From a virus: a stretch of 48,744 nucleotides of DNA. Positions 1,235 through 48,744 of the stretch are shown here, one piece after another. The notes under the pieces were generated by a model that made no database searches, had not been told where the DNA came from, and saw nothing but the letters and a program-made list of their open reading frames with translations. The first letter of the stretch is position 1; each line of letters begins with the position of its first letter. Where the stretch lies: the IMG/VR virus record IMGVR_UViG_3300045988_145890; one strand, given 5' to 3'. The position numbers were made by a program, and so were the translations under genes.

Positions 1235-1462
1235 ATGGCAGATGCAAAGAAATGTGATCGATGTGGCAAATTATTTGAACCATATATAAAGTCAGATGAA
1301 CGGTTAAATCCAAATAAGTATACTGAAATAATGGTTAGAGATGCTTTTGTTGGCAAATCATCATACAATAATGACAGATACTTTGATTTGTGTCCTGAAT
1401 GTTCTGAGTCTTTAAATAAATGGATTAACTTTTTTAAGGATGGTGACGCTGATAATGAATGA
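1235..1462 (+). CDS. small zinc-ribbon protein
   Basis: 75 aa with CDRC and CPEC pairs. GGAGG RBS upstream. Confidence 0.6.
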   Translation: MADAKKCDRCGKLFEPYIKSDERLNPNKYTEIMVRDAFVGKSSYNNDRYFDLCPECSESLNKWINFFKDGDADNE

Positions 1463-1733
1463 AGCAAGTAAAAGAATAGAAGCAAGTAAAAGAATATTAG
1501 AAGAATTGAAGCACTCATATGAGTGCTTGTTTGTAAAGACAGGCATAGAACCAAATTGCTTTCTTCTATCTTCAGATATATATTACCAATTGTTACAGCA
1601 AGAGGAAATATTGTATGAACTTAAAGTAAATTCAATTGGTATAAAGTATATCAACGGAATTGATGTTTTGCTTGTAAGTGGAGAAAAAGTAGCAAAGGCG
1701 GCGATAATTGATGAGCAACAATCAACCACGTAG
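1455..1733 (+). CDS. hypothetical protein
   Basis: ORF open from 1440. ATG 1455 overlaps the end of the upstream gene. No recognisable motif. Confidence 0.5.
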   Translation: MNEASKRIEASKRILEELKHSYECLFVKTGIEPNCFLLSSDIYYQLLQQEEILYELKVNSIGIKYINGIDVLLVSGEKVAKAAIIDEQQSTT

Positions 1734-2202
1734 TTTTAAGTTCTATCGCAAGAATGAACAAGAGGTTATGGAGTCTTTAGGACTTAAGCCGACTAAGAAC
1801 TCAGGTAGTGGATGGATCGAAAAAGAAGATGGTCAAAATGACTATGTTATTTGTCAGCTTAAGAGCACAGATGCACAGTCAATAAAAGTTAATCAAAAGG
1901 ACATTAGAACATTAGAAAAGAATGCAATGATTGAACATAAGATTCCAATGTTTGCAATTCAATTCTTAAACACCGGAGAGGTATGGCTAATGCTTAAGCC
2001 TGAGGATTTACAAGATGCCTCAGAATACATTTTAACTGGTTCAATAAAGGAATCTAGGTTAGATCATTTAGGAATTGATTTAGAGGCATCTGATGACCTT
2101 AGGACTATATCTAATAAGTCAATTAAGTCATCAGGTAGTTCAAGGGAAATGTTTCACAAACAACAAAGTAAAAAATATAATAAGAAAAGGAGTGCATTGT
2201 AA
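1711..2202 (+). CDS. putative PD-(D/E)xK-type nuclease (resolvase-like)
   Basis: NSGSGWIEKEDGQNDYVICQLKST resembles the D...(E/Q)xK core of small phage nucleases. ATG 1711 preferred over TTG 1708. Confidence 0.35.
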   Translation: MSNNQPRSFKFYRKNEQEVMESLGLKPTKNSGSGWIEKEDGQNDYVICQLKSTDAQSIKVNQKDIRTLEKNAMIEHKIPMFAIQFLNTGEVWLMLKPEDLQDASEYILTGSIKESRLDHLGIDLEASDDLRTISNKSIKSSGSSREMFHKQQSKKYNKKRSAL

Positions 2203-2564
2203 TGAAAGCAAGAGTAAAAGGAATGTATGCATATAAAGGGCATAATGTATCAGCAAATGGAAGTGTAAATCTTACGCTTAGTGGTAAGTATTCACAGATG
2301 ACAAGTTCTGTGCAATTACTGCAGATGCTGAATAATGATGTTGTTATTCAGATCAAAATGGGAGTTGAAAAGCCATTTAAAATTGGTTCGTTCAGAATTA
2401 AAAATGTTGCTTTTGATGGTGACGGAGAAAGTATTTTGAAGTTTAACAGTTTAAATGACTTTGTTGATATTGATAAAATGAATGATCTTATCACAAAGGA
2501 AGAATTTGCTGTGATGTTTACAGCAGACATCGAAGATGAAGATGATGAAAGTGAGGAAGAGTAA
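2202..2564 (+). CDS. hypothetical protein with acidic C-terminal tail
   Basis: 120 aa. TAATG overlap with the upstream stop. Ends DIEDEDDESEEE. Confidence 0.55.
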   Translation: MKARVKGMYAYKGHNVSANGSVNLTLSGKYSQMTSSVQLLQMLNNDVVIQIKMGVEKPFKIGSFRIKNVAFDGDGESILKFNSLNDFVDIDKMNDLITKEEFAVMFTADIEDEDDESEEE

Positions 2565-2860
2565 TGGCAGCCAAAATGAAGTATTTAGAATTATCAAATG
2601 CTCAGATTGCAGATAAAAGACGTTTGGTGATTTCTGAATGTGTAAAAGAGAATCAGGACACAAAGGAAAACATTCAATGTGGATTTACTTTAGCCCAGCA
2701 GGTTGAGGTAGAAGAAGGTAAAAGGATGACAAGGGTATTCCTTAAAAATGGAATCCATGTTGCAAGTATTGATGAGCTTTATAATCTTCGGGATGCAATC
2801 AATGATGCAATTAACAAATATGAAAATGAAAAAAGTGATGAGGAAGAGTGGGAAAATTAA
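2564..2860 (+). CDS. hypothetical protein
   Basis: 98 aa. TAATG coupling to the upstream gene. Confidence 0.55.
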   Translation: MAAKMKYLELSNAQIADKRRLVISECVKENQDTKENIQCGFTLAQQVEVEEGKRMTRVFLKNGIHVASIDELYNLRDAINDAINKYENEKSDEEEWEN

Positions 2861-2899
2861 ATATTTTTGAAAAAAGTTGAAAAATTTTTAAAAAACCTA

Positions 2900-2927
2900 T
2901 TTACTTTTCCAGAAATTGTGATATAAT
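2900..2927 (+). promoter_or_regulatory. sigma70-like promoter, member of the conserved AAAAACCTATTTAC family
   Basis: TTTACT (2900-2905), 16-nt spacer, TGaTATAAT (TATAAT 2922-2927). Preceded by AAAAACCTA and an A/T-rich upstream tract. Confidence 0.65.
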
Positions 2928-2974
2928 TAAACCATCAAAACAAATAAAACACAAACATCCAGGAGGATAAAGAA

Positions 2975-3226
2975 ATGATTAGTACAAATAAAGTTGTAGG
3001 GTTTTATACTGATGTATTTGGAAATGAAGTTGATGAATATGAACAGACTGAAAGATATACGGTATGGTATGAAGGTCATTTATTCGCAGGAGATACAGAC
3101 GGATATAACGAGCATGGATATGATAAATTTGAAGATGCCATTGCTTTATATAATGCGTATGGAGATATGATACACATTAAAGATAATGAATATGGTGTAA
3201 GTTTTGATTATGGCGAATGGGGTTAA
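2975..3226 (+). CDS. hypothetical protein
   Basis: 83 aa. AGGAGG RBS. First ORF after the promoter at 2900. Confidence 0.6.
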   Translation: MISTNKVVGFYTDVFGNEVDEYEQTERYTVWYEGHLFAGDTDGYNEHGYDKFEDAIALYNAYGDMIHIKDNEYGVSFDYGEWG

Positions 3227-3552
3227 GCAGAGACTTCTCAAATGGACGAATATGGAAGATATTGGAAAACATACAATTTTTAAGTAGTATTCAAGGATGA
3301 GAAAAATTTTAAGTTAATAAACAAATTTTGTGATGAGTATACATGCAGACTTGAAAATGGAAAGATTGTTAGTAAAACACAATTTGGTTTAAAATATGCA
3401 ATGGCAGCAAGACAGCAAATAGGATTTTAATAAGCCCACTAATCAGACATTTATTGTTTGATTTAAAATAAATAAATTGCTAGAAAGCAAAAGTAAAACA
3501 ACAAAAAAACAATGTATGCAAAGTCATACAAGCAAAGAAAAGGAGAAAAATT

Positions 3553-4155
3553 ATGGCAACAAATTGGACATTATCACAGGCATTAGCAAAGATCACAGAA
3601 GGAACAGATAAGGCAGCAATCCAGGATATTGGAAGAAGATTCCCACTTACAGCAGTAGCATTAGCTGAAATCGGTCAGAATGCAGGCGCAGTTAAGATCA
3701 TTGGTGCAGTACCATCACATATCACGGCAAGAAAGATTGAATCTGTGTTAAAAGATGGTGTAGAGCAGGATCCAGATGTGGATACTGAAGATACTGAAGA
3801 TGAAGAGGAAACATCAAAGAAGGAAAATAAGAAACCTGCTAAGAAAGCTGCTAAAGCAAATGCAGAAGAAGATGCGGATGATGAGGAAGATGATCCTGTA
3901 GCACTTTACAAGAAATGTAAGAAAGCAGGTATTAAGGTTGCACCAAAGAAATCAGCAAAATATTACAAAGATCAGTTAGCAAAGGCAGCAGCTGCAGAGG
4001 AAGATGCAGATGATGAGGACTGGGATGATGAGGAAGAGGATGAGAAGCCTGCTTCAAAGAAGAAACCTGTCAAGAAGGCACCTGCAAAAAAGACTGCAAA
4101 GAAAGCTGAGCCGGAAGATGATGAAGATGAGGATGAAGATGAGTGGGACATTTAA
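3553..4155 (+). CDS. highly charged K/D/E-rich protein with HeH (Rho_N/SAP-like) motif
   Basis: 200 aa. Motif DPVALYKKCKKAGIKVAPKKSAKYYKDQLAKA flanked by acidic and lysine-rich tracts. AAGGAG RBS. Confidence 0.6.
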   Translation: MATNWTLSQALAKITEGTDKAAIQDIGRRFPLTAVALAEIGQNAGAVKIIGAVPSHITARKIESVLKDGVEQDPDVDTEDTEDEEETSKKENKKPAKKAAKANAEEDADDEEDDPVALYKKCKKAGIKVAPKKSAKYYKDQLAKAAAAEEDADDEDWDDEEEDEKPASKKKPVKKAPAKKTAKKAEPEDDEDEDEDEWDI

Positions 4156-4194
4156 TATTCCCAATGAATCCTCCGATCATAGATAGGTAAGGAA

Positions 4195-4232
4195 AACCAC
4201 CAACTGTAGAAAGAAAGCTATGGTTGGTGGTT
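4195..4232 (+). terminator. terminator-like hairpin
   Basis: Perfect 10-bp stem AACCACCAAC / GTTGGTGGTT with an 18-nt loop, followed by ATTTGAATAT. Confidence 0.45.
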
Positions 4233-4253
4233 ATTTGAATATATGGAGGAAAT

Positions 4254-4712
4254 ATGAGATATAGGATCTATACAGATGGTTCTTGGAATAAAGAAAAAGA
4301 CATCGGTGGTTGGGCAATAGTAATTGCAGATCATCAAGGAATAAAGTTAAAATCAGGGTCAAAAAAAGGCACGACAAATAATCAAATGGAGTTAATGGCG
4401 GTCTTGAATGCATTAGAATATGCAGTAAGAAAGCATTTAAAAGACATAGAAATAATCACAGATTCTATGTATGTTTTAAATGGAGTAAAAAAATATGTAG
4501 ATACATGGAAAGCAAATAATTGGGTAGGACTTTCAGGTGATGAGATTAAATATAAATCACAATGGGAAGGAATACTTATTATGCTGGAAAGTTTAAAGGA
4601 AAATAATTTTTCTGTTAAGTTTTCTAAGGTAAAAGGACATGACGGAAATTCATTAAATGAGCTTGCAGACCTTAAAGCAAGGGAAGCAATTAAAGCATAT
4701 AAGGAGAAGTAA
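4254..4712 (+). CDS. rnhA: ribonuclease HI
   Basis: YTDGS...GGWA, NNQMELMA, IITDS and KGHDGNSLNELADLKA match the RNase H1 DEDD layout. Confidence 0.85.
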   Translation: MRYRIYTDGSWNKEKDIGGWAIVIADHQGIKLKSGSKKGTTNNQMELMAVLNALEYAVRKHLKDIEIITDSMYVLNGVKKYVDTWKANNWVGLSGDEIKYKSQWEGILIMLESLKENNFSVKFSKVKGHDGNSLNELADLKAREAIKAYKEK

Positions 4713-4714
4713 AG

Positions 4715-5104
4715 ATGGAAATATATGCGTCAAAATTGTATCAGAAAGTTTTTCGAGGTAACAAGTCTAAAGATACGTACTTAAAAGCTTGTGGATGGTT
4801 AGCACAGAATGTAGTGTCTGATCAGCAAATAAACAATAACGTTACATATACGATAGAAAAAGGATACGATGATGAATCTGGTGTTTACTTATATACAGTA
4901 ACATTGTTTGCAAAACTTAATAAAGAAGATATTAAGAATAGACATTGTGGTATTTGCAGGGAATTAAATGGCAGCTTTCTGATGAAGGAAGAAATAAAAT
5001 GTGATTGGTGCAAGTTGCAGGCATATTTCAGACGTGAAGATGATATGATCAAAGAGAAGAAAAGATTCATAAAAGAAAAAATTAGTGGAGGCAAAAATGA
5101 TTAG
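4715..5104 (+). CDS. hypothetical Cys-containing protein
   Basis: 129 aa with CGIC...CDWC pairs. AAGGAG RBS. Confidence 0.55.
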   Translation: MEIYASKLYQKVFRGNKSKDTYLKACGWLAQNVVSDQQINNNVTYTIEKGYDDESGVYLYTVTLFAKLNKEDIKNRHCGICRELNGSFLMKEEIKCDWCKLQAYFRREDDMIKEKKRFIKEKISGGKND

Positions 5105-5444
5105 AAGATTTAGTTTGATATGCAAAAGAATAAAAAGAAAACTGATAAACAATCTTCAAACAATTTATATGATCTTGTTTGCAGTTAATCCTATTATCGG
5201 TATATTTATCAATGGTAAAGAACTGATAACAATTCAGATAATTGTTAACTTTATTATTGCAATACTTATTTTTGCTGATCAGTACATACACAATAAATAC
5301 AATGACATTCCAGTTATGAGAAAGCCACTTGTAAGATATGAAAAATCTACAAATAAGGTAATTATGAAGCCAGAGGATATGTATGAATCTCTTAATTATT
5401 TATCTGATTTGCAGGAATACTTTGAAAGGAAAGGAATGTTATGA
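5097..5444 (+). CDS. membrane protein
   Basis: ATG 5097 lies 6 nt after GGAG. Hydrophobic segments ILFAVNPIIGIFI and IIVNFIIAILIFA. Confidence 0.55.
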   Translation: MIRRFSLICKRIKRKLINNLQTIYMILFAVNPIIGIFINGKELITIQIIVNFIIAILIFADQYIHNKYNDIPVMRKPLVRYEKSTNKVIMKPEDMYESLNYLSDLQEYFERKGML

Positions 5445-5530
5445 AAATTGATTTAAGAAAGGTAAAACGAATATTTGATATAATATTTATAACTGTATGT
5501 ATTATTTATTTGTTTTATATTACAAAATAA
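5441..5530 (+). CDS. possible 29-aa membrane peptide
   Basis: ATGA overlap with the upstream stop. MKIDLRKVKRIFDIIFITVCIIYLFYITK. Too short to be sure. Confidence 0.3.
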   Translation: MKIDLRKVKRIFDIIFITVCIIYLFYITK

Positions 5531-5676
5531 AATACCTTTGTGAGGTCATCAGATGCCCCAGAAATGATTTTTATTGATAGGCTTATAAAATATATACAAA
5601 ACCATAAAAAGTGCTTTAAAAGGCTTAATTTGAAAAGTCAATTTGAAAAAAACTTTAATAAATTTAAGCAAAAATG

Positions 5677-6900: not shown

Positions 6901-7386
6901 ATGTTAGTACCAGCAATTTTATACAAAGAACGGATCGGGGAAGAATTCAAAAAATATTACTATACAATAGATATGTTATATGAAACAGGTTGCATATGTA
7001 ATTGGAGTCCAGAAATTGCAGAATGTCCAAATGAAAGTCAATTTCAATATGCAATAGTTGATAAGAACGAAAAACTCATTGGCTATTTAGAATATTCCGT
7101 TGATTGGTATGTATCTAAAGCATATAGCTTTGGATTGTTCTCATTTGACAGAGGAAATATCTTGGTTGGTAGGGACGTGTTCGATAAATTAGAAGAACTG
7201 ATTAAAACATTACATAGAGTTGAATGGAGAGCTGTTGGTGGAAATCCTGCTTGTAGAGGTTACGATAACTTTATTGAGAGACATAATGGAATGAAACATG
7301 TTCTGAAAGATTCAATTAGGGATAAGAATGGAAATTATCACGATGATATTATTTATGAAATAGTAAATGAGGAAAAGCACATATGA
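6901..7386 (+). CDS. possible GNAT-like acetyltransferase
   Basis: 161 aa. LHRVEWRAVGGNPACRGYDNFIERHNG resembles the RimJ/RimL-type GNAT core. By eye only. Confidence 0.4.
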   Translation: MLVPAILYKERIGEEFKKYYYTIDMLYETGCICNWSPEIAECPNESQFQYAIVDKNEKLIGYLEYSVDWYVSKAYSFGLFSFDRGNILVGRDVFDKLEELIKTLHRVEWRAVGGNPACRGYDNFIERHNGMKHVLKDSIRDKNGNYHDDIIYEIVNEEKHI

Positions 7387-7481
7387 TAAAAGGTAATAAA
7401 GTATATGATCCATTAACAAATACATGGAGTACAGACTACTGGGTAAAAGATGATAAAGGAAATTATTATCCGGTATGGTAG
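7383..7481 (+). CDS. possible 32-aa ORF
   Basis: ATGA overlap with the upstream stop. Short. Confidence 0.3.
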   Translation: MIKGNKVYDPLTNTWSTDYWVKDDKGNYYPVW

Positions 7482-7537
7482 TAAATTGATAATGTTATAA
7501 TGGTAAGACATAGCAATTATGAAGAAGGATAGAGATT

Positions 7538-7864
7538 GTGGAGATAATGAAGCTGATTAACAAATATGCAAATTCAAGATACTCTAATATGAATGAATAT
7601 TATTGTGAAATAACAACAGAGTTAGACAAGCTTGCCGGAATTTATTCAAATAGATATTGGAAACATTATGTGCTTTGTAATTATAAGGATGGTTGTTTAC
7701 CTATTAGAATTCCAGGCGGAACACTTGGAAGTATCGAGTATGACGAGAATAAGATTATTACAAAAATTCATGTTTGTACCGATTACGTTGTGAAAACTTA
7801 TCCAAATGATGTAAATGAACAGCTTCAAAAGTTTATTGGTCGGAAGATAGAAATGGAAAACTAA
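7538..7864 (+). CDS. hypothetical protein
   Basis: 108 aa. GTG 7538 lies 8 nt after AAGGA; alternative ATG at 7547. Confidence 0.5.
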   Translation: MEIMKLINKYANSRYSNMNEYYCEITTELDKLAGIYSNRYWKHYVLCNYKDGCLPIRIPGGTLGSIEYDENKIITKIHVCTDYVVKTYPNDVNEQLQKFIGRKIEMEN

Positions 7865-7969
7865 CATATTTTGTAGTCAATTGATAAGTTAGGCATATAA
7901 ATAAAATTATATAACCCTCTTTAATGTATAAGACATACTGAAACAAATAAGAAGAGAGGAGAATATAAA

Positions 7970-8350
7970 ATGCCAAGAAAAGGAGAATATAAGTATAATG
8001 TAGATGAAATATGCAGAGCATTAGATAGTTATACAGCACAATGCGTTAAGCAAAAAGAAGTACCTATATTAAAAGAGGTATTTGTTAAAAAAGGATGGTC
8101 TTATGAATATGTATGTAAGATATTAAATGGCAGATTATTAGAGCAGAAAGATGATAGATTAGATACTTCTATAAAGAATCTAGTAAATGCTAAGGAGTAC
8201 ATGCTAGAGAGATTAGGTTTAAAAGGTAAGATCAATTCAACATTAGCAGTATTCAGTCTTAAGCAATTAGGCTGGAGAGATCAACAACAGGTAGATGTAG
8301 GTACTGATACAAAGAAAAGTATTAAGATCACATTAGTAAAACCTGATTAG
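7970..8350 (+). CDS. terS: terminase small subunit (putative)
   Basis: 126 aa. Lies directly upstream of the tRNA pair and terL. N-terminal HTH-like segment VPILKEVFVKKGWSYEYV. Confidence 0.55.
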   Translation: MPRKGEYKYNVDEICRALDSYTAQCVKQKEVPILKEVFVKKGWSYEYVCKILNGRLLEQKDDRLDTSIKNLVNAKEYMLERLGLKGKINSTLAVFSLKQLGWRDQQQVDVGTDTKKSIKITLVKPD

Positions 8351-32576: not shown

Positions 32577-33087
32577 TACAAATGACAAGAAAGTTTTTTC
32601 TGAGATTCTCGATTTGTATCGTTTAGAGCAGAAGTTCAAATTTGCAAAGCAAGAATATGACAATCAGAAAAAGAAGCTTTCGTTAGGTATTCGTAACTAT
32701 ATGTTTTCCAAGGACTACTCGCAATTAGATTTCAAAAGCAGAGAATTCGGTAAAGTGCATGTTTCAAATATAATTCGTAAATCAATTGTTTGGGATGTTG
32801 AAAAGCTTAAGAAAAAGTTAGATAAGGATTTAACAGACCAGTTCATTGAAAAGAAGTACATTGTGAATAATATGCAAGGTCTTATTAAACTTTTAAAAGA
32901 AGCTGGTGTAAAACCAAAGGAATTCAAAAAGTTTATTACTGTCGAGGAAAAAGTTAATCAGCAGAAAATGAATGAGCTTTCTGAGATTGGTGAGATTGAT
33001 AAGGAAGATATTGGCGGATGCTATGAATTGAAAGAAGCAGAGGGTTACTTAAAGATCAATGTGAAAGAGCTGGAGAATGAAGAATGA
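32557..33087 (+). CDS. hypothetical protein
   Basis: 176 aa. Overlaps both neighbouring genes. Confidence 0.5.
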   Translation: MQVKKSSTNDKKVFSEILDLYRLEQKFKFAKQEYDNQKKKLSLGIRNYMFSKDYSQLDFKSREFGKVHVSNIIRKSIVWDVEKLKKKLDKDLTDQFIEKKYIVNNMQGLIKLLKEAGVKPKEFKKFITVEEKVNQQKMNELSEIGEIDKEDIGGCYELKEAEGYLKINVKELENEE

Positions 33088-34069
33088 AAAAAATGAATTG
33101 GCAAAAGTTCTTTGGTTCTATGGTCTTATAGGCAATGTAGATGCTGAGGAACAAAAAATTATCTGTCCTTTTCATGAAGATGCTAATCCAAGTATGATTG
33201 TAAATCTAAAGCAAGGAAGCTACTATTGCTTTGGTTGTCATGAATCTGGTGATGCGTTAAAGTTTGTGCAAAAGATGGAAAAAATGAGAAGTAAGTCAAA
33301 TGATTTGCAAGGATGTAAAAAGTTTTTTCAGATTCTTAAATCGGATGAATGTAGTAGAATACGAATTCAAAGAGTTGAGAAAGTAAAAAAAACATCAAAG
33401 CAAATGTATGCAGAAGCATATGACTATTTTCATGGTTTGTCTAAGGTAAATTGGAGAAAGAAAAGTGATTTAGACGAAGTAAATGAAGTAAGGTCTTATA
33501 TGGTGAAAAGAGGATTTACTACAAGTACATTAAATAAGATTGATGCAAGAGTTACTTTTAGCAAGAATTATGAGTTGATTTTTCCAATGTTAGATAATGG
33601 CAAATTTAAAGGTTGGGTTTGCAGAACGAATATTCCAGAAGTTGAACAAAAAAGAAAGTATCTATATAATAAAGGCTTTAGAAGAAAGACTTCTTTAATA
33701 GGTAATTATGGAGATAATGAAGTTTTATTCATAGTAGAAGGATTTATGGATAGACTTAAATTCATTCAGTTTGGTGTGAATAATGTAGTAGCAATCTTAG
33801 GTTGGAAAGCTTCATTACATCAAATTGAAAAGATAAAAAGCAAAAAGAATATTAAGTATATTGTATCAGCTTTGGATAATGACAAATGCGGAATAAAAGG
33901 AAGTAAATATTTAGAAAGTATATTCAAAGAAAAATATGTTAGGTTTGCATATCTAAAAGGGGTTAAAGATCCGGGTGAAATGTCAAAAGAGACATTCGAT
34001 AAAATGTATAGAAAGACAATGAACAAAATAGACATGAAATGCATGGACAAGAAGAAAGATGGTAAGTAG
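33077..34069 (+). CDS. dnaG: DNA primase (DnaG-type: CHC2 zinc finger plus Toprim)
   Basis: CPFHEDANPSM...YYCFGCHESGDALKF. Toprim motifs FIVEGFMD and SALDNDKCG. Confidence 0.85.
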   Translation: MKNEKNELAKVLWFYGLIGNVDAEEQKIICPFHEDANPSMIVNLKQGSYYCFGCHESGDALKFVQKMEKMRSKSNDLQGCKKFFQILKSDECSRIRIQRVEKVKKTSKQMYAEAYDYFHGLSKVNWRKKSDLDEVNEVRSYMVKRGFTTSTLNKIDARVTFSKNYELIFPMLDNGKFKGWVCRTNIPEVEQKRKYLYNKGFRRKTSLIGNYGDNEVLFIVEGFMDRLKFIQFGVNNVVAILGWKASLHQIEKIKSKKNIKYIVSALDNDKCGIKGSKYLESIFKEKYVRFAYLKGVKDPGEMSKETFDKMYRKTMNKIDMKCMDKKKDGK

Positions 34070-34210: not shown

Positions 34211-35020
34211 ATGGGATTATTAGATAGAATGAAGCATGAAGCAGCAAAGTCCGGAGCAAGTAAAGGAAAGTTTATGTACTTTAGACCTGACGACAAAAAG
34301 CGAATTAGATTCTTGCAGGAATTGGATGATGGTTTAGAAATTCCATTTCATGACAATTTTGAAAGAGGAATAAATGTTCCATGTCAGGAAGTGTTCGGTA
34401 AAGATTGTCCATATTGTGAAGATGAAGATCTTAGAACAAGAAGCCAGTTTGCATTTTCTGTTTACGATTATGATGCAAAGGAAGTCAAGATTCTTATGCA
34501 GGCAGTAAATCAGTGTTCAGCAATTCCTGCACTTGTAAATATGGCAGAAACATATGGGACAATTACAGATCGTGATTATGTATTGAAGAAGACAGGTAAA
34601 GGTTCGACTTCAAGCTTTACAATTATCCCGATGGATAAGAACAAATTTAGAAATGAAAAAGCAAAACCGCTTTCCAAGAAAGCTTTGTTAAAGTATTTGA
34701 ATCAGGCTTTTCCTTGTGATGATTCTGAGGATGATTTAGAGGACGATGAAGATGATTACGAAGACAGTCATAAGAAACCTAATACAAAAAAGAAAAAGGC
34801 TTCTGAGGATGACTGGGATGATGAGGACAGTAAATCTGATTATTCAGATATGTCAGCACGTGAGCTTTACGATCTTTGCTGTGATCGTGACATCGAGTGC
34901 CAGAAGAAACGCCCGGCAAAATATTATATCAATTTGTTAAAAGAGGATGATGCAGTCCATGATGATTGGGACGATGAGGAAGATTCTGATGAAGATGAAT
35001 GGGAGGATGACGATGAATAA
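34211..35020 (+). CDS. putative ssDNA-binding protein (gp32-like) with acidic tail and HeH motif
   Basis: 269 aa. Cys cluster PCQEVFGKDCPYC. HeH-like motif SARELYDLCCDRDIECQKKRPAKYYINLL. Ends in DE-rich tracts. Confidence 0.4.
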   Translation: MGLLDRMKHEAAKSGASKGKFMYFRPDDKKRIRFLQELDDGLEIPFHDNFERGINVPCQEVFGKDCPYCEDEDLRTRSQFAFSVYDYDAKEVKILMQAVNQCSAIPALVNMAETYGTITDRDYVLKKTGKGSTSSFTIIPMDKNKFRNEKAKPLSKKALLKYLNQAFPCDDSEDDLEDDEDDYEDSHKKPNTKKKKASEDDWDDEDSKSDYSDMSARELYDLCCDRDIECQKKRPAKYYINLLKEDDAVHDDWDDEEDSDEDEWEDDDE

Positions 35021-35366
35021 ATCATTTACAGATTTTTTTAATGATCAGGTCACTTTTCAAAAAGAAGTCAATGAAAGATTTGGATATGGTGTAAGTGTAG
35101 AAAACATTCCAGAGGATAATGTTGAGATTGCAAAATACCATATGCTTGCGTTGATGGAAGAGACGGGTGAATTGGTAAAATCTGATAAGCGTTGGAAGAA
35201 TTATCGTAATACTCATTTCGATAAAAATAACAAGTTGGAAGAGCTTTCTGATTGCTTCATTACATTATTTAACGTTGCAATGTACAGCGGTATCTCAGCC
35301 GAAGAGATTGAATTAGCATTAACTAAAAAAATGGATGAGAACATGAAACGAATAAGGGAGGCCTAG
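35013..35366 (+). CDS. MazG-like all-alpha NTP pyrophosphohydrolase
   Basis: ATG 35013 follows GGGAGGA. Motifs LMEETGELVKS (EExxE) and EELSDCFITLFNVA. Confidence 0.6.
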   Translation: MNKSFTDFFNDQVTFQKEVNERFGYGVSVENIPEDNVEIAKYHMLALMEETGELVKSDKRWKNYRNTHFDKNNKLEELSDCFITLFNVAMYSGISAEEIELALTKKMDENMKRIREA

Positions 35367-35402: not shown

Positions 35403-36395
35403 ATGAATAAATTAAAGTATAAAGTCGATAAAATTCTCAAAAATCAGTTGATAAGTGTACAAATAAACTTATTAAATGAATGTACAAGCAGATGTAAGAG
35501 TTGTAGAAGATACACTTGGCCAAAAGATAAGCTTAATCTTGATGATGTAAAAAGAATTGTAAATTTTTTGTATAATAAGTATAGGATTGAGTCAATTCTT
35601 TTTTCAGGAGGAGATCCAGTTTGTTATGATGAATTGGATAAAGTTATTGAATATTGTAGTGACTTAGGAATACATACAGCGTGTATTACGACGCTCATTA
35701 CTGAAGATGAGCATATTAAAGATGCATTAACAAAGACGGATAGATTATTTGTTTCATTTGATGCATTTGACAGAGAAAAATATAAGATTGTAAGAGGAGT
35801 AGATGGTTCAGAAATTGTAAAAGAAAATTTAAGAAGTTTAAATGTTTTAAGAAAAAGAAATGGAAAAGAAAAGATAAGATTAAGTATGACGGTAGGAAAG
35901 TTAAATTTAGATCAGGTTGAAAAAGTGTATGCTTTTTGCAAAGAAAATGATTTAAGTCTAAATTTTTATTTATTGCATACTTGGGATGATTTGATGATGT
36001 CAAAGGATGATCTTAAGTTATTTTTTGATATGATGAAGAAAATTTCAGAAGAAAGCTATATTATGACAAATGCAGGAAGCTTTTTTGAAAAAGAGGATAA
36101 GTTAAAAGAAAGCTTTGATTGCTATATTCCAAGAATAACATGTGCAATAAATGCAGATGGAAATGTTTTTCCTTGTTGTAAGCTATTTGATGAGAATAAC
36201 TTTTACAAAGATCAGCTAAAGTATTCATACGGCAATGTGTTACATGAAGATATGAATGAAGTATTCAGTAGAAGGCTTGCTATCGGATATCCTTTAGAAT
36301 GTAGCAATTGTAAAAGTTGCTTACCGCAATACATAAGTCCAATTAACTTTATGGATGATTTGTATAAGCATAAAGATGATGCAATATTCATGTAA
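35403..36395 (+). CDS. radical SAM enzyme with SPASM/twitch-like C-terminal Cys cluster
   Basis: CTSRCKSC (CxxxCxxC, Cys codons at 35481, 35493 and 35502), FSGGDPV, and C-terminal CYIPRITCAINADGNVFPCC and CSNCKSC. Confidence 0.8.
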   Translation: MNKLKYKVDKILKNQLISVQINLLNECTSRCKSCRRYTWPKDKLNLDDVKRIVNFLYNKYRIESILFSGGDPVCYDELDKVIEYCSDLGIHTACITTLITEDEHIKDALTKTDRLFVSFDAFDREKYKIVRGVDGSEIVKENLRSLNVLRKRNGKEKIRLSMTVGKLNLDQVEKVYAFCKENDLSLNFYLLHTWDDLMMSKDDLKLFFDMMKKISEESYIMTNAGSFFEKEDKLKESFDCYIPRITCAINADGNVFPCCKLFDENNFYKDQLKYSYGNVLHEDMNEVFSRRLAIGYPLECSNCKSCLPQYISPINFMDDLYKHKDDAIFM

Positions 36396-36407: not shown

Positions 36408-36908
36408 ATGTTAATAATTGTAGAAGGAATTGACAGAGTCGGAAAAACAACATTATGTGAAATGTTGTCAAAGTCATTTGGTATTAAGATATTTAAGCAT
36501 GATTCTAAGTTGTTTAACCTAGACAAAATGGATAATGATAACGAGACCGATAAAGCAATTAAGATTTGTGAGATTTGCAAATTGCTAAATGGGACTTTAT
36601 TGTTGGATAGATCTTATTGGTCTGATTTTGTATATGGAGTTCTTGAAAGAAATTATTGCATATCAGATGCTTTGGATAATTTAAAAAAAATTGAAAGCAT
36701 ATATAAAGATGAAGCAGTAATAATATATGTTAGGCCTGTTGATTTAAAATTATCATCAAAGCTTCATGGTGCAGATTTGACAAAGTATAATGATTTATTT
36801 GAATCAGTAAGAAAAGGAACGAAATGTAAAGTTATAGATTGTACATATGAAAGTCTTGAAAAAGTCATAGTAGAATTAGAAAGTATTTTGGGTGATAAAA
36901 ATGAATGA
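36408..36908 (+). CDS. thymidylate-kinase-like dNMP kinase
   Basis: MLIIVEGIDRVGKTT P-loop typical of Tmk, plus DRSYWSDFVYG. ATG 36408 follows AAGAGGTGA. Confidence 0.65.
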   Translation: MLIIVEGIDRVGKTTLCEMLSKSFGIKIFKHDSKLFNLDKMDNDNETDKAIKICEICKLLNGTLLLDRSYWSDFVYGVLERNYCISDALDNLKKIESIYKDEAVIIYVRPVDLKLSSKLHGADLTKYNDLFESVRKGTKCKVIDCTYESLEKVIVELESILGDKNE

Positions 36909-37752
36909 CTTAATATATAAAGTTGGAGAAGCCAATTGCAATAAAGTATTTGATAAGAATGGCGGCTTTTATGAGTATAACTTGATAAAAAGTGAAATTA
37001 CAAAATTGTTGGATAATGGTTTGGAAAAATGCTTTGTTTTGGTAGGAGGAAATCTTTCGGATGAAAGTGAATATGAGAAGATTATAAGCCTCATAAAGAG
37101 AAAAAAAGATAAAGGATATAAAATAATATTTATTGTTACTGACTCTATATCATTAAAAGAAATGTCAATTGATGTAATAAAGAGATGCGATTTATTATTG
37201 CACCAAGCAGTCGGCTTTGTATTTGATAATATAGATATAGAGCAAAAGTATTCATATGTGCCGGAATTATTTTATGTAGATAATGAAAAGCCAAAAGTTC
37301 AAAATGATATGATTTTTTTTGGAGGAGGAAGCTATAATAGAGAGGATAAGATAAAAGAGTATCTTAGAAAAGACAATGAAATGAAAAAAGGAACATTTTC
37401 TATTATAAAGGATAGCTTAAATGATGAAAGAATAGACTATAGTTCATTGCAATTACTAATGAAAATGTTTAAATTTAGTTTAATTATTTGTAGAAAGGAA
37501 TACAGAGAGAATTATTGGTTTACTCCAAGATTTATTGAAGCTGTTAATAATTGGAGTTTACCAGTTTTAGATTTTGAATATAACAAAAATAGATTATATG
37601 AATCAATTGAAGTAAGTTCATACGATGAAATGATTTATATGATAAATTGTTGCGGTGAGGAAAGCAGAATAAATAGGATATTGGATTTAAGAAAAGAGAT
37701 TAAAAGTAACAAAGACAAATTTGCTAAAAATATAATTGATTTTTGTAAATAA
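36901..37752 (+). CDS. hypothetical 283-aa protein (weak glycosyltransferase-like resemblance)
   Basis: Overlaps the kinase gene by 8 nt. MIFFGGGSYNRE and WFTPRFIEAVNNWSLPVLD resemble exostosin/GT-B C-terminal motifs. By eye only. Confidence 0.5.
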   Translation: MNDLIYKVGEANCNKVFDKNGGFYEYNLIKSEITKLLDNGLEKCFVLVGGNLSDESEYEKIISLIKRKKDKGYKIIFIVTDSISLKEMSIDVIKRCDLLLHQAVGFVFDNIDIEQKYSYVPELFYVDNEKPKVQNDMIFFGGGSYNREDKIKEYLRKDNEMKKGTFSIIKDSLNDERIDYSSLQLLMKMFKFSLIICRKEYRENYWFTPRFIEAVNNWSLPVLDFEYNKNRLYESIEVSSYDEMIYMINCCGEESRINRILDLRKEIKSNKDKFAKNIIDFCK

Positions 37753-37767
37753 TGAAAGGAATTGCAA

Positions 37768-38475
37768 ATGTTAAGTAATGTAATTGTAAAAGGAGAATCT
37801 TTAGATGAAGTATGGCTTACTTGGTTTAAGCAAATGATAGATAATAAAATCTCAGAAGAAAGTAGAGATGGAGAAGTTGCATCAGAAATAATAAATGCAA
37901 TAACTGTTTTGGAAAATCCAACAAAGAACATAATGACTAATCAAGTAAGAAAGCTATCAATGAGATATGCTATCGGTGAAATGCTTTGGTATATGTCAGC
38001 TAATCCAAATTTGAGTGCAATCCAGCATTATACAAAAGCTTGGGATAGAATGTCAGATGATGGAGAAACAGTAAATAGTAATTATGGTTATATTATTAAA
38101 GAGGCATATAACTTTAATCAGTATGAGTATTGCAAACGGTTACTTATTAAAGACAAAAATAGTAGGCAGGCAATTATTCACATTAAGGTACCAAAAAATA
38201 CTTTGGAACAGCCTACAAAAGATTTAAACTGTACAGTTTGCTTACAATTTTTAATTAGAGAAAATAAACTATACTGTACAACATATATGAGAAGTAATGA
38301 CTTATGGTTAGGATTTCCGTATGATATTTTTCAGTTTACTTGTATTCAAGTAAGAATGGCAATGGAATTGGGATTGGAAATTGGAAGTTATACGCATATA
38401 GCTGGATCATTGCATATGTATAAAAGAGATTTCGATAAAGCAATTGAAAGATATAAGGAGGAAAATAATGTTTGA
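37768..38475 (+). CDS. thymidylate-synthase-family enzyme with Asp at the Asn177-equivalent position (predicted dCMP hydroxymethylase or methylase)
   Basis: Catalytic Cys in DLNCTVCLQF (38230), YMRSNDLWLGFPYDIFQF (Asp codon 38323-38325) and GSLHMY. 235 aa. Confidence 0.7.
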   Translation: MLSNVIVKGESLDEVWLTWFKQMIDNKISEESRDGEVASEIINAITVLENPTKNIMTNQVRKLSMRYAIGEMLWYMSANPNLSAIQHYTKAWDRMSDDGETVNSNYGYIIKEAYNFNQYEYCKRLLIKDKNSRQAIIHIKVPKNTLEQPTKDLNCTVCLQFLIRENKLYCTTYMRSNDLWLGFPYDIFQFTCIQVRMAMELGLEIGSYTHIAGSLHMYKRDFDKAIERYKEENNV

Positions 38476-41194
38476 TTTACATAGGCATGATGAATATTCA
38501 ACATTTGACGGGTATGGTAAAGCTACAGAGTTAGCTGCTTTAGCAAAAGAATATGGATATAATGCTTTATGTACGACAAATCACGGAAATACAAATGGAT
38601 TGATTCAAACGTATATGGCTTGTAAAGATTTAGGCATTAAATCTATATTAGGAGTCGAAGGTTATTTTTTGCCAAAATGGAAGCAGCAAACTAGGGGATT
38701 TCATCTGATTGTCATTGCTAAGAACTTAAAAGGATATGGCAATATGAACAGATTGCAATTTGAAGGTGAAAAACAGAAATACTATAATCCAATATGGGAC
38801 TTTGATTTACTGGAAAAATATCATGAAGGGCTAATTTGTACAACGGCTTGTGTAGCAAGTTATTCATCGCAATGTATAATTGCAGGCAAGAATGATTTAG
38901 CAGAAAAATACTTAAGAAAGTTAAAAAGCATTTTTAAAGATGATCTTTACGTTGAGATTCAGCCATATAAAGTGTCAGAAGAAGGATTGCAAGAATATGT
39001 GAATGTTCAGTTAATTAAATTGGCAAAGAAGTTAAAGATTAAATGTATTTTAACTTCAGATTCTCATAGAGGAAGAAAAGAGGACTTTGGCACATATATG
39101 AAGATGCATGAAGTTGCGAATCATAATTTCGCAGATATTGAAGCAACATATGCTGAACGATATATGCCAAAGCCTTTTGAAATGCAAAAGAGATTTTATA
39201 AGATGCATAAAGATGATTTTGGTGATGATCTCGCCAAAAAGCTTGCAAATAAAATGGCAAAGAATCTTGATGAGATTGAAGACAAATGTGAAGAGAATTA
39301 TCTTGAGCAATTGCCATTAAAGTTGCCAAAGTTGGGTGATGATTCTACAAAAGTTTTGAAAAACAAAATTATTGAAGGTCTTAAAAGAAGAGGAAAATAT
39401 AAGAAGGAATACATTAAGCGAGTAAAGGAAGAATTTGATATAATTCATTACCATGGATTTGAAGATTATTTTCTTATTGTTGCAGACTATGTTAACTGGG
39501 CAAAGAAAAGAGGAATTATTGTAGGTCCAGGCAGAGGATCTGTTTGTAACTGTTTAGTAGCATATGCAATAGGAATCACTGAAGTGGATAGTTTATTATT
39601 TAATCTTGATTTTAGAAGATTCTTAAGAAAAGATAAAAAGAAGTTTCCTGATATTGATTTGGATTTTGAAACATCAAGGCGACATGAAGTAATTGAATAC
39701 TTATGTAAGAAGTATGAAGGACATGCAGCAAGAATTTGTTCATATGGTCTTTATAAAGTTGACAATCTTTTAAATGATTTGTTCAAAGTATGTGGACTTC
39801 CAACAGATAAAACTTTAGATGAAGAGGAAGTGAAAAGAAATAAATCAGAAATTCAATACATCAAATCATTTGTTCAATCAAATGTCGATGAAAATCAAAA
39901 TCTGGATGTGAAGAATTTGACAGAATCTGCGGAAGCAAAAATGATAAATAAAAAGTATGATAATATTCTTATTCATTTTTGCAAGTTATACAAGAAAGTA
40001 AGATTCATCGGAACGCATGCAGCTGGTGTAGCAATAACAGGTGGAGAATTGCTTGATTATGTAGCTTTAAAAGTTGACAAGAATGGAGATGTATTTACAA
40101 ATTATGACTTGACTGATATTGAGACCGTTAACGTTATCAAATTTGACATTCTTGGGCTTAAGACTATGGAATCAATTGGTGATTTAAGAAAAAGCACAGG
40201 AGTGACAGTCGATTATGATGAAGCAGTAAAAGACAAAAAGATTCTTGAGAATTTTAGACTTGGCAATTGCGATGGCATATTTCAGTTTGAAAAGAAAACA
40301 GCTAGGGATATTCTTGAGAAGATTCATTGTGATTGTTTTGAAGATATTGTAGCTGCATCATCAATGAATAGGCCGGGACCATTAAGTTTGAAGCAGCCAG
40401 ATTTATATGCTGAAAATAAATACAACATTGAGGAAGCAAAATCTTCTGAGTATTGGGAGTATACAAAAGAATCTTATGGCACAATCATATATCAGGAGCA
40501 GGTTCAAAGAATATGCGTTAATATTGGAGGACTTGAATGGACAGATGCAGATAAGATCATGAAACTTATGAAAGGCGGACATATGACAGAATCCGCTCAA
40601 AAAGCTTATAATGAAAATAAGGAAAACTTAAAAAGAAAGTTTGTTGATGGAGCTGTAAGTAATGGATATGAAAGAAGCTTTGCAGAAGATCTGTTTGAAA
40701 AAATGATTTCATATACATTTAATGAAGGACATGGGGTTGGATATTCTTTGATAAGTGTTGAAGAAATGTTTTACAAAGTATATGAGCCGAGTGCTTATTG
40801 GTTTGCAAAACTAAAATATGCAAAGAATGATTCAGAATATGATAAGTTCTGTGCAAAAGCTGTAAATGATGGATCTGTTGTTTTTCTTCCTCATGTTAAT
40901 TATTCTTCAGAAAAAGCAAAGCTTAGAAAAGTAGAGGGAGAGGATTGTTTGCAACAAGGTCTTTCCGAGATCAAGGGAGTTGGTGAAAAAGCAGCTTCAT
41001 ATATTCTTGATGAAAGAAAGAAACATGGAATATTTACTTCATTCGATAACTTTTATGATCGTTGTAAGTCAAGGACTGTAACATCACGAGTTGTTGAACT
41101 ATTAAAAGAAGCAGGAGCTTTGGAATTTAATAAAAAGATTTATATTAAGAGAGTAACAAAGTACAATAGTGCTCTTTATTCAAGGGCCAATTAG
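38468..41194 (+). CDS. dnaE: DNA polymerase III alpha-type (DnaE family, PHP domain)
   Basis: FDLHRHDEYS PHP motif, GRGSVCNCLVAYAIGIT, FDILGLKT, MNRPGP and HhH GVGEKAA. 908 aa. ATG follows AGGAGG and overlaps the upstream gene by 8 nt. Confidence 0.9.
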   Translation: MFDLHRHDEYSTFDGYGKATELAALAKEYGYNALCTTNHGNTNGLIQTYMACKDLGIKSILGVEGYFLPKWKQQTRGFHLIVIAKNLKGYGNMNRLQFEGEKQKYYNPIWDFDLLEKYHEGLICTTACVASYSSQCIIAGKNDLAEKYLRKLKSIFKDDLYVEIQPYKVSEEGLQEYVNVQLIKLAKKLKIKCILTSDSHRGRKEDFGTYMKMHEVANHNFADIEATYAERYMPKPFEMQKRFYKMHKDDFGDDLAKKLANKMAKNLDEIEDKCEENYLEQLPLKLPKLGDDSTKVLKNKIIEGLKRRGKYKKEYIKRVKEEFDIIHYHGFEDYFLIVADYVNWAKKRGIIVGPGRGSVCNCLVAYAIGITEVDSLLFNLDFRRFLRKDKKKFPDIDLDFETSRRHEVIEYLCKKYEGHAARICSYGLYKVDNLLNDLFKVCGLPTDKTLDEEEVKRNKSEIQYIKSFVQSNVDENQNLDVKNLTESAEAKMINKKYDNILIHFCKLYKKVRFIGTHAAGVAITGGELLDYVALKVDKNGDVFTNYDLTDIETVNVIKFDILGLKTMESIGDLRKSTGVTVDYDEAVKDKKILENFRLGNCDGIFQFEKKTARDILEKIHCDCFEDIVAASSMNRPGPLSLKQPDLYAENKYNIEEAKSSEYWEYTKESYGTIIYQEQVQRICVNIGGLEWTDADKIMKLMKGGHMTESAQKAYNENKENLKRKFVDGAVSNGYERSFAEDLFEKMISYTFNEGHGVGYSLISVEEMFYKVYEPSAYWFAKLKYAKNDSEYDKFCAKAVNDGSVVFLPHVNYSSEKAKLRKVEGEDCLQQGLSEIKGVGEKAASYILDERKKHGIFTSFDNFYDRCKSRTVTSRVVELLKEAGALEFNKKIYIKRVTKYNSALYSRAN

Positions 41195-41684: not shown

Positions 41685-42083
41685 ATGAGACTTTGGCATA
41701 TTGATTTGTTAGAGGTTTTACCAAGGCAGCAGCTATTATCACAATGGAGAGAATGCTGTTGCATAGCAAGAAATATCTATGCAAACGGTACACCAAATCA
41801 CTTGTTGGTAAATAAAATTTTAGATTATGACATTTCTGATTTTTATAGTTATTCAATTCTTGTATCAAATGAAATGCTTAGAAGAGGTTATAAAGTAGAT
41901 CGCAGTAAATTTGAAAAGTATTATAAATGTGATAGGTTTACAAGCAGACCATTTCCAGGTTGGCATAATAATAGATACTTTTTACAATGTTTTTGCAATT
42001 TACAAGAAAAGTATGATTGTGGAGGAATAACTGATAAGGAATGGTGTAAAGTAGTAAATAAATATTATGAAAGGAGTTGTTAA
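41685..42083 (+). CDS. pyrimidine-dimer DNA glycosylase-like (DenV/TIGR02328-like) protein
   Basis: The N-terminus MRLWHIDLLEVLPRQQLLSQWRECCCI matches the MRLWH...LPxxQLLgQxRE signature of this family. Confidence 0.6.
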   Translation: MRLWHIDLLEVLPRQQLLSQWRECCCIARNIYANGTPNHLLVNKILDYDISDFYSYSILVSNEMLRRGYKVDRSKFEKYYKCDRFTSRPFPGWHNNRYFLQCFCNLQEKYDCGGITDKEWCKVVNKYYERSC

Positions 42084-44639: not shown

Positions 44640-44771
44640 ATGGAATATAAATTATTGTGCTTTGGAAAACATGAAGATACAGTAAGATGCGGAATGTGCC
44701 CAGATGAAGGAACATGCGAATGCGAAACGAAATATCAGGGAGAAGAAAATGAAAAGAATAAGCAAAGATGA
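44640..44771 (+). CDS. hypothetical 43-aa Cys-rich protein
   Basis: TAATG-type overlap. MEYKLLCFGKHEDTVRCGMCPDEGTCECE... Confidence 0.35.
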   Translation: MEYKLLCFGKHEDTVRCGMCPDEGTCECETKYQGEENEKNKQR

Positions 44772-45198
44772 ATATTACTTAGGAATTGCATTAGCAGTAT
44801 CAAGAAGAAGTACGTGTTTAAAAAGACATTATGGTTGTGTTATTGTAAAGAATGATGAGATCATTGCTACAGGCTATAATGGATCACCAAGAGGAGAAGA
44901 AAACTGTTGCGATTTAGGTAAATGCAAAAGACTAAATGTTCCACATAATAGTGGTGATTATTCTGATTGTCATTCAGTTCATGCAGAACAAAATGCTATG
45001 TTGTCAACTAGTAGAAATGAAATGATTGGTGCAACAATGTATTTAGCTGGTGAAGAGAAGGCAGACTTTAGCCAAAGTTGTTGGTTCGATATAGAAGATG
45101 CTACTCCATGTCCTATCTGTGAAAGAATGATTAAGAATGCAGGAATTATTTCTGTAAAAAATGCAAAAAGTTGCAAAAACCTATTTACAAATGAGTAG
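44749..45198 (+). CDS. dCMP deaminase
   Basis: ATG 44749 follows GGGAGAAG. YYLGIALAVSRRSTC, zinc motifs HAEQNA and PCPICERMI. Confidence 0.85.
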   Translation: MKRISKDEYYLGIALAVSRRSTCLKRHYGCVIVKNDEIIATGYNGSPRGEENCCDLGKCKRLNVPHNSGDYSDCHSVHAEQNAMLSTSRNEMIGATMYLAGEEKADFSQSCWFDIEDATPCPICERMIKNAGIISVKNAKSCKNLFTNE

Positions 45199-48693: not shown

Positions 48694-48744
48694 AATTAAA
48701 TAATAAATTAAATAATAAATTAAATAATAAATTAAATAATAAAT
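48694..48744. repeat. 12-bp tandem repeat; duplicate of 1..51
   Basis: Exact identity to the window start. Confidence 0.95.

Follow-up and report, generated by a model that had tools for sequence, protein, structure and literature searches.

A predicted T4 gp42-type dCMP hydroxymethylase beside radical SAM and glycosyltransferase-like genes in an uncultivated gut-phage genome

The IMG/VR virus record IMGVR_UViG_3300045988_145890 is an AT-rich stretch of 48,744 bp (32.9% G+C), hereafter the window, in which a gene for a thymidylate synthase (TS) homolog lies within a block of replication and nucleotide-metabolism genes. The reading frame opens with ATG at 37768, preceded by a GAAAGGA ribosome-binding site, and closes with TGA at 38473-38475; this end overlaps the ATG of the DNA polymerase III alpha subunit (Pol III alpha) gene (38468) by 8 nt, an arrangement that suggests translational coupling. 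The product is a member of Pfam PF00303 (1.5e-27) and matches the PHROG thymidylate synthase families at 1e-45, and it falls below every NCBIfam ThyA equivalog cut-off (best score 72.9 bits versus a cut-off of 174.55). An earlier note on this DNA had likened the protein in its shortness, too, to phage T4 gp42, the deoxycytidine monophosphate (dCMP) hydroxymethylase, and the lengths of the two proteins are indeed close (235 versus 246 amino acids). Only 17 residues follow the H-x-Y motif, compared with 55 in E. coli ThyA, 28 in T4 gp42, and 61 in the homolog from phage PaMx74. The gene and the codons that carry its assignment are as follows.

37768..38475, plus strand: TS-fold protein of 235 amino acids, predicted T4 gp42-type dCMP hydroxymethylase (5-hydroxymethyl-dCMP synthase), from Pfam, PHROG and the residue signature
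38077..38085, plus strand: codons of S104-N105-Y106, equivalent to Ser94-x-Tyr96 of T4 gp42, the second half of the hydroxymethylase signature (NSNYG in both the TS homolog and T4 gp42; PMC6400193)
38164..38169, plus strand: codons of R133-Q134 (AGG CAG), aligned with R126-R127 of E. coli ThyA, the first Arg being a deoxyribose marker (Lys in MilA)
38221..38223, plus strand: codon of D152 (GAT), aligned with E. coli L143 and T4 D145, the water-activating hydroxymethylase mark three residues before the Cys (role from PMC6400193 and PMC13326640)
38230..38232, plus strand: codon of C155 (TGT), the catalytic nucleophile, equivalent to E. coli C146, in an invariant alignment column
38293..38295, plus strand: codon of S176 (AGT), aligned with E. 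coli S167, a deoxyribose marker (Ala in MilA; PMC5175136)
38299..38301, plus strand: codon of D178 (GAC), aligned with E. coli D169, the Asp being kept where RB69 gp48 has Asn in the same column
38323..38325, plus strand: codon of D186 (GAT), aligned with E. coli N177, T4 D179 and MilA D186, the cytosine-versus-uracil determinant (role from PMC5175136 and PMC6400193)

The register of these equivalences was taken from default MAFFT, MAFFT L-INS-i, and HMMER pairwise alignments to solved structures, all three of which agree. The aligned set comprised E. coli ThyA (in a sequence identical to PDB 1aob), T4 gp42, RB69 gp48, the deoxyuridine monophosphate (dUMP) hydroxymethylase of SP-10, the PaMx74 homolog, the aligned part of the cytidine monophosphate (CMP) hydroxymethylase MilA, and the three nearest cultured-phage homologs. 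The blocks that the earlier note had paired by eye (NSRQAIIHIK...NCTVCLQF with DSRRIIVSAWN...PCHAFFQF; KLYCTTYMRSNDLWLGFPYDIFQF of E. coli ThyA with a 24-residue stretch of the TS homolog; GSLHMY with GDTHLY) were reproduced by the same three alignments. The catalytic Cys that it had placed at codon 38230 is C155, which aligns with E. coli C146 throughout, and the Asp that it had set against Asn177 (codon 38323-38325) is D186, which falls in the N177 column together with D179 of T4 gp42, as had also been claimed. Further matches to E. coli ThyA are E71 for E58, Y106 for Y94, and H216/Y218 for H207/Y209. Across the signature positions (in E. coli numbering: E58, Y94, R126, L143D, C146, S167, D169, N177D, H207, Y209), T4 gp42 has the same pattern as the TS homolog. 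The published marks of the other enzyme classes were recovered in the same alignment (N169 in RB69 gp48; N177 in SP-10; K126 and A167 in MilA; N143 and the 61-residue tail in PaMx74), which provides an internal control on the register.

The meaning of these positions has been worked out in characterized relatives. In T4 gp42, Asp179 recognizes and protonates cytosine, and the water that adds to the exocyclic methylene intermediate is held in place by Asp145 and the Ser94-x-Tyr96 motif; a D145N variant makes no 5-hydroxymethyl-dCMP (5hm-dCMP), and the site stays open because no C-terminal tail covers it (Park et al. 2019, PMC6400193). Ser167 and Arg126' mark enzymes that act on deoxyribonucleotides, whereas Ala176 and Lys133 give MilA its ribose preference, and MilA with both residues exchanged (A176S/K133R) turns to dCMP (Zhao et al. 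2016, PMC5175136). Every sequence feature by which T4 gp42-type enzymes are recognized was found in the TS homolog: the TS fold with its catalytic residues, N177D, Asp143 with the Ser-x-Tyr motif, the absence of the ThyA tail, and S167/R126. The TS homolog is thus very probably a phage dCMP hydroxymethylase, that is, a 5hm-dCMP synthase of the T4 gp42 type. The predicted action on dCMP, already proposed in the earlier note, agrees with the residue tests (Asp at N177, with Ser167 and Arg126 kept). Of the two products that the note had offered, 5hm-dCMP is favored by Asp143, the Ser-x-Tyr motif, and the missing tail, while 5-methyl-dCMP is disfavored by a pattern that differs from that of PaMx74.

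The Asp at position 177 is present in 119 of 120 close homologs (at least 59% identity) and in 147 of 150 more distant ones, the latter being representatives of 50%-identity clusters taken at E <= 5e-38 from an exhaustive HMMER scan; it is therefore a character of the clade and not a chance substitution. Asp at position 143 is equally frequent among the distant representatives (147/150), and the full D-C-D-D pattern is found in 119 of the close and 146 of the distant sequences. Many of the cluster representatives of this Asp-type TS clade are fusion proteins of 470-620 amino acids, in which the TS domain is N-terminal or, in a few cases, C-terminal.

Among the other enzymes that the protein could be, a dCMP methylase of the XP12/PaMx74 type, which would make 5-methyl-dCMP by hydride transfer from tetrahydrofolate, survives best, and even this is improbable. 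The PaMx74 enzyme is likewise an N177D TS homolog, the Asp at this position being common to dCMP methylases, and its gene lies near those of a nucleoside triphosphate (NTP) pyrophosphatase and a dCMP deaminase; a dCMP-family deaminase is also encoded in the window, and such an association has been reported for phages with 5-methylcytosine (5mC; bioRxiv 10.1101/2024.12.05.627091). However, position 143 is Asp in the TS homolog and Asn in PaMx74, and since the D145N variant of T4 gp42 abolishes hydroxymethylation (PMC6400193), this acid is the discriminating residue and argues against a methylase. The PaMx74 protein (298 amino acids in total; product 5-methyl-dCMP) also has a full-length tail, whereas the TS homolog lacks the C-terminal tail that seals the site. 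Finally, in PaMx74, where 5mC replaces cytosine, a dihydrofolate reductase (DHFR) gene lies two genes downstream of the TS homolog, past the dCMP deaminase, while no DHFR was found among those open reading frames of the window that were scanned.

A second alternative is a flavin- and O2-dependent 5-hydroxy-dCMP synthase of the RB69 gp48/HY126 type, which would provide 5-hydroxycytosine as a handle for glycosylation. Enzymes of this kind are found among the phage TS homologs that carry N177D and L143E, and D169N is the mark by which they are told (Lee et al. 2026, PMC13326640). The likeness to the TS homolog of the window is considerable, since N177D and an acidic residue at 143 are common to both, the protein is short and tail-less, and glycosyltransferase-like genes adjoin it, the product of RB69 gp48 being a handle for DNA glycosylation (PMC13326640); the structures 9iqc and 9iqu, near-identical to RB69 gp48, match at 7e-11. 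These matches are nevertheless weaker than those of MilA, ThyA, or T4 gp42. The diagnostic D169N (PMC13326640) is missing (RSND, as in T4, versus RSQN in RB69), which disfavors such a synthase, and W80 and G173, lost in the flavin-binding, O2-using RB69 gp48, are retained. The only cultured relatives of the window infect Agathobaculum, and the O2 requirement of the reaction tells further against it. O2-dependent chemistry is unfavorable in a strict anaerobe such as this host. Taken with the residues, this makes the 5-hydroxy-dCMP synthase very improbable.

It is just as improbable that the protein acts on dUMP, either as a functional thymidylate synthase or as a dUMP hydroxymethylase. The family is named thymidylate synthase in Pfam, PHROG, and NCBI, and the closest annotated phage homolog, from the Agathobaculum phage AB434P2 (58% identity), is labeled deoxyuridylate hydroxymethyltransferase. 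Residue 177 is Asp in the TS homolog, but Asn in the same column of both the SP-10 dUMP hydroxymethylase and E. coli ThyA, and the score lies well under all NCBIfam ThyA equivalog cut-offs. The dUMP hydroxymethylases of the SPO1 gp29/SP-10 type combine this Asn with an acidic residue at 143. Asp also stands at 177 in the AB434P2 protein, so that its label is probably an annotation error.

The least probable of the alternatives, hardly to be expected here, is a hydroxymethylase of the MilA or BcmA kind, with the ribonucleotide CMP as substrate, serving a nucleoside metabolite or RNA modification instead of DNA: MilA of Streptomyces rimofaciens (PDB 5b6d, 5jp9) carries out hydroxymethylation chemistry on cytosine, is the best-scoring solved relative by HMMER (1e-28, ~35% identity over the aligned part, versus 1e-14 for T4 gp42), and has identical numbering in the C-terminal half (C155, D186, H216, Y218), but it is a 325-residue CMP-preferring enzyme of an antibiotic pathway whose Lys133 and Ala176 are replaced by the deoxyribose pattern Arg133/Ser176, the very exchange that redirects MilA to dCMP (PMC5175136), and the TS homolog is apparently translationally coupled to a replicative polymerase within a deoxynucleotide-metabolism module.

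ThyA, dUMP hydroxymethylase, CMP hydroxymethylase, dCMP methylase, and 5-hydroxy-dCMP synthase were each rejected on at least one defining residue test. For canonical ThyA (EC 2.1.1.45), the differences are D186 in place of Asn177, D152 in place of a hydrophobic residue at 143, the absent tail, and the equivalog score given above.

Several observations weigh against assignment as a T4 gp42-type hydroxymethylase. MilA outscores T4 gp42 among the solved relatives, and the nearest annotated phage protein, that of AB434P2, bears the dUMP label. The position of R127 is occupied by Gln (Q134), which is also the majority state of the clade (96 of the 150 representatives) and is likewise Gln in the SP-10 enzyme. 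Residue signatures are good but not infallible predictors, as indicated by a study in which 5-methyl-dCMP was predicted for seven homologs and confirmed for five (bioRxiv 10.1101/2024.12.05.627091). The identification of the neighboring pyrophosphohydrolase as a deoxycytidine triphosphatase (dCTPase) is weak, and the roles proposed below for the glycosyltransferase-like protein and the radical S-adenosylmethionine (SAM) enzyme are drawn only from fold and linkage.

Residues N177 and L143 are routinely used to assign the TS homologs of phages (PMC8670742; PMC13326640; bioRxiv 10.1101/2024.12.05.627091), and the TS homolog is accordingly an ordinary member of a known family and no new kind of enzyme. 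The gene itself is of modest interest; the leads worth following are the pair of radical SAM enzyme and compact GT-B protein beside it, which may further decorate the modified cytosine, and the turnover of the cassettes to which they belong.

The gene order around the TS homolog is primase, p269, NTPase, radical SAM/SPASM, kinase, GT-B, TS, Pol III alpha, DenV-like glycosylase, RecA/UvsX-like recombinase, and deaminase. Gene starts were chosen by the lengths of homologs and by ribosome-binding sites, the mechanical list of open reading frames having earlier, probably wrong TTG or GTG starts for several genes.

33077-34069: DnaG-type primase
p269: 269-residue protein with weak matches resembling single-stranded DNA-binding protein
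35013..35366, plus strand: all-alpha NTP pyrophosphohydrolase of 117 amino acids, candidate dCTPase, with ATG at 35013 (mechanical reading frame from 34947)
35403..36395, plus strand: radical SAM enzyme of 330 amino acids with a SPASM-type C-terminal Cys cluster (Pfam Radical_SAM 2.9e-14, SPASM 3e-6)
36408..36908, plus strand: P-loop deoxynucleoside monophosphate (dNMP) kinase, thymidylate-kinase-like, 166 amino acids, proposed 5hm-dCMP kinase (PHROG 761, 1.2e-13)
36901..37752, plus strand: compact GT-B-fold glycosyltransferase-like protein of 283 amino acids, proposed glycosyltransferase of 5-hydroxymethylcytosine (5hmC) in DNA, from predicted structure
38468..41194, plus strand: Pol III alpha, 908 amino acids (Pfam PHP, DNA_pol3_alpha, finger, HHH_6)
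44704..45198, plus strand: dCMP/cytidine deaminase-family protein (Pfam dCMP_cyt_deam_1, 3.3e-17), downstream of the module in relatives too

Overlaps of 8 nt of the ATGnnnTGA type join p269 to the NTPase (35013-35020), the kinase to the GT-B gene (36901-36908), and the TS homolog to Pol III alpha (38468-38475), a succession that suggests translational coupling within the module. The NTP pyrophosphohydrolase matches Pfam dUTPase_2 (2.6e-6), more weakly MazG and dATP/dGTP-PPHyd, and PHROG 173 (7e-11), and is kept in all relatives; it shows a weak local match to T4 gp56 (E 0.003 in one comparison), and a PDB search returned no match. The kinase has weak Pfam and NCBIfam dTMP kinase matches on the P-loop, and in relatives its gene directly precedes the TS homolog or the cassette of the latter. 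Searches of Pfam, PHROG, NCBIfam, and PDB sequences with the 283-residue protein returned nothing; its GT-B fold is identified by predicted structure only, from an AlphaFold2 (AF2) model (predicted local distance difference test, pLDDT, 90.8) that Foldseek matches to OtsA, TreT, TarM, and MurG in the PDB. Viral glycosyltransferases in the BFVD collection were matched as well, among them some that are annotated as DNA beta- or alpha-glucosyltransferases, and also the second sugar-transferase-like protein encoded by the phage VPE25 group.

The wider window encodes terminase, portal, major head, tape-measure, and Dit proteins, followed by the replication and nucleotide-metabolism block. An identical 51-nt AT-rich repeat (period ~13 nt) lies at its two ends (1-51 and 48694-48744), so that the window is most likely the whole genome of a tailed phage, assembled as a circle. 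Contigs of 49-52 kb that are nearly identical to it occur in IMG/VR and in human-gut assemblies, and the only cultured relatives are the Agathobaculum butyriciproducens phages AB434P2 and AB434P3. A megablast search of the region against cultured phages reached at best 73% identity, over the polymerase gene of the Agathobaculum phages, which indicates that there is no close cultured relative. A T4 DenV-like pyrimidine-dimer DNA glycosylase is encoded at 41685-42083 (Pfam Pyr_excise, 1.8e-17); it is kept in close relatives and absent in more distant ones, and the phage is one of gut anaerobes, for which ultraviolet damage is unexpected.

From the observed fold, residue signature, synteny, and conservation, a pathway can be proposed in which the substrate, the product, and every later step are conjectural. 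By homology with T4 gp42, C155 would attack C6 of dCMP, D186 would orient and protonate the cytosine ring, and the methylene of 5,10-methylene-tetrahydrofolate would pass to C5. With no C-terminal tail to seal the site, and with D152, S104, and Y106 positioning a water molecule, the exocyclic methylene intermediate would be hydrated instead of reduced, giving 5hm-dCMP and tetrahydrofolate. The NTP pyrophosphatase (35013-35366) may supply the substrate by converting deoxycytidine triphosphate to dCMP, and the dNMP kinase (36408-36908), with the nucleoside diphosphate (NDP) kinase of the host, would raise 5hm-dCMP to the triphosphate (5hm-dCTP), which the phage Pol III alpha (38468-41194) would incorporate. 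The GT-B protein (36901-37752) could then place a sugar on 5hmC in the DNA, the radical SAM/SPASM enzyme (35403-36395) could alter that sugar or its donor, and the dCMP deaminase (44704-45198) would provide dUMP to the host ThyA for dTMP, keeping dTTP supplied. Together with host NDP kinase and ThyA, the neighboring genes correspond to the T4 scheme; the genes are identified in the window, while the flow of nucleotides through them is put forward by analogy.

The comparison with T4 gp42 itself (EC 2.1.2.8; PDB 1b5d, 6a9a) covers the TS fold, the catalytic Cys, the base-specificity Asp, the Asp three residues before the Cys, the NSNYG and RSND motifs, the lack of a tail, and a similar length, and the window holds candidate companion genes for dCTPase-like, dNMP kinase, glycosyltransferase, and dCMP deaminase proteins. 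On the other hand, the two enzymes are only ~29% identical, R127 is Gln in the TS homolog, and the T4-specific insertions are absent from it. The window kinase is Tmk-like in place of T4 gp1, the polymerase is Pol III alpha in place of the family B enzyme of T4, the candidate glycosyltransferase is a much smaller GT-B protein unrelated in sequence, and the module of the window includes a radical SAM enzyme.

Beyond the Agathobaculum phages, the nearest cultured-phage homologs are those of Lactobacillus phage ATCCB (42% identity) and Enterococcus phages VPE25 and VFW (39%). They resemble the TS homolog in the D-C-D-D signature, a small kinase-like gene upstream, and nearby glycosyltransferase genes, but differ in a C-terminal extension of 60-75 residues that is not homologous to the ThyA tail, in a glycosyltransferase of the T4 beta-glucosyltransferase type, and in lacking a radical SAM gene. 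The T4-like beta-glucosyltransferase gene adjoins the TS homolog in ATCCB and is one gene (a dUTPase) away in VPE25. The DNA of VPE25 and VFW resists bisulfite conversion and restriction, which has been interpreted as glucosylated hydroxymethylcytosine, and the bisulfite resistance indicates that the cytosines are modified (PMC4999554). Literature searches for studies that identified 5hmC directly by chemical means in the VPE25 group yielded the bisulfite-resistance result only.

The radical SAM enzyme of the window has a CxxxCxxC motif at C27/C31/C34 and five conserved C-terminal Cys residues. Its AF2 model (pLDDT 90.6) finds SuiB, viperin, BlsE, DesII, anSME, and SkfB as nearest folds, with the highest TM-score (0.71) for DesII. 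NCBIfam and PDB sequence matches sought for a finer assignment were all generic and far below cut-offs. Since the fold matches are spread over peptide-, nucleotide-, and sugar-modifying enzymes (the substrates of viperin, BlsE, and DesII being CTP, cytosylglucuronic acid, and a TDP-sugar), they do not fix the substrate; that the enzyme tailors the sugar or its nucleotide donor is suggested with low confidence. The family is rare: of 5.8 billion clustered proteins, just 39 belong to it, and each of the three whose contigs were looked up (L030-L032) lies in a phage module of this kind. In the papers searched, radical SAM enzymes turned up solely in thymidine hypermodification pathways, and no paper tied one to a 5hmC pathway.

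A conserved backbone of primase, p269, and NTPase, followed by TS, Pol III alpha, RecA, and deaminase, is shared by 14 related viral contigs and by several metagenome contigs. The genes on either side of the TS homolog, in contrast, are exchanged in the form of cassettes, of which no fewer than four different ones were observed beside hydroxymethylases that are 57-99% identical.

Cassette A (the window and L012-L018): radical SAM/SPASM enzyme, kinase, and small GT-B protein
Cassette B (L005/L019, TS 88% identical): kinase and a 377-residue Glyco_trans_1_2 (GT1-like) protein, with no radical SAM gene
Cassette C: kinase, a different 297-residue radical SAM/SPASM protein, and a 403-residue protein, then TS and a 380-residue protein
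Cassette D (AB434P2, which is L001, at 1314-5582): choline/ethanolamine-kinase-like protein, cytidylyltransferase-like protein, and a distant GT-B homolog, then TS and a 361-residue protein

The backbone of L005/L019 is 86-99% identical and its TS 88% identical, yet its cassette is different, which suggests that the cassette at this site was replaced recently. Cassette A also occurs in contig L031, in the order NTPase, GT-B, radical SAM, kinase, and TS, where it accompanies a different replication backbone (Prim-Pol/D5, SNF2, DNA ligase, and SAM synthetase) and its proteins are 31-51% identical to those of the window. This recurrence in an unrelated backbone indicates that the radical SAM enzyme follows the hydroxymethylase module rather than the phage lineage. 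The cassette of AB434P2 hints, as a separate observation, at the attachment of a CDP-activated phospho-alcohol in place of a simple sugar.

A tentative proposal, for which the odds are somewhat unfavorable, is that a mobile five-gene module with the hydroxymethylase as its constant core builds an undescribed cytosine hypermodification in phages of strictly anaerobic gut Firmicutes, by placing a group on 5hmC that is then remodeled by radical chemistry. The remodeling of the attached sugar or other group might be, for example, a deoxygenation, oxidation, or decarboxylation, as in DesII or BlsE.

A variant of the locus is seen in contig L032, from a related phage, where a TS homolog is missing from the slot that precedes Pol III alpha and the same kinase and radical SAM genes adjoin a 336-residue protein and a 361-residue Peptidase_U32-family protein (Pfam 2.1e-8; slot coordinates L032:8035-9120 and 7035-8045). 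Proteins of the U32 family (RlhA, TrhP, UbiU/V) are O2-independent hydroxylases, and L032 could therefore represent an anaerobic route to a 5-hydroxypyrimidine handle.

For the Asp-type TS clade, the labels thymidylate synthase and deoxyuridylate hydroxymethyltransferase are misleading. The window adds one more uncultivated gut-phage lineage that is predicted to replace cytosine with 5hmC. DNA of this kind would withstand many restriction enzymes and some CRISPR nucleases, and it behaves abnormally in bisulfite, enzymatic-methyl, and nanopore sequencing. The turnover of cassettes around a constant hydroxymethylase is the pattern expected from an arms race over the decoration of the 5hmC hydroxyl, and the cassettes point to candidate enzymes for new O2-independent DNA chemistry.

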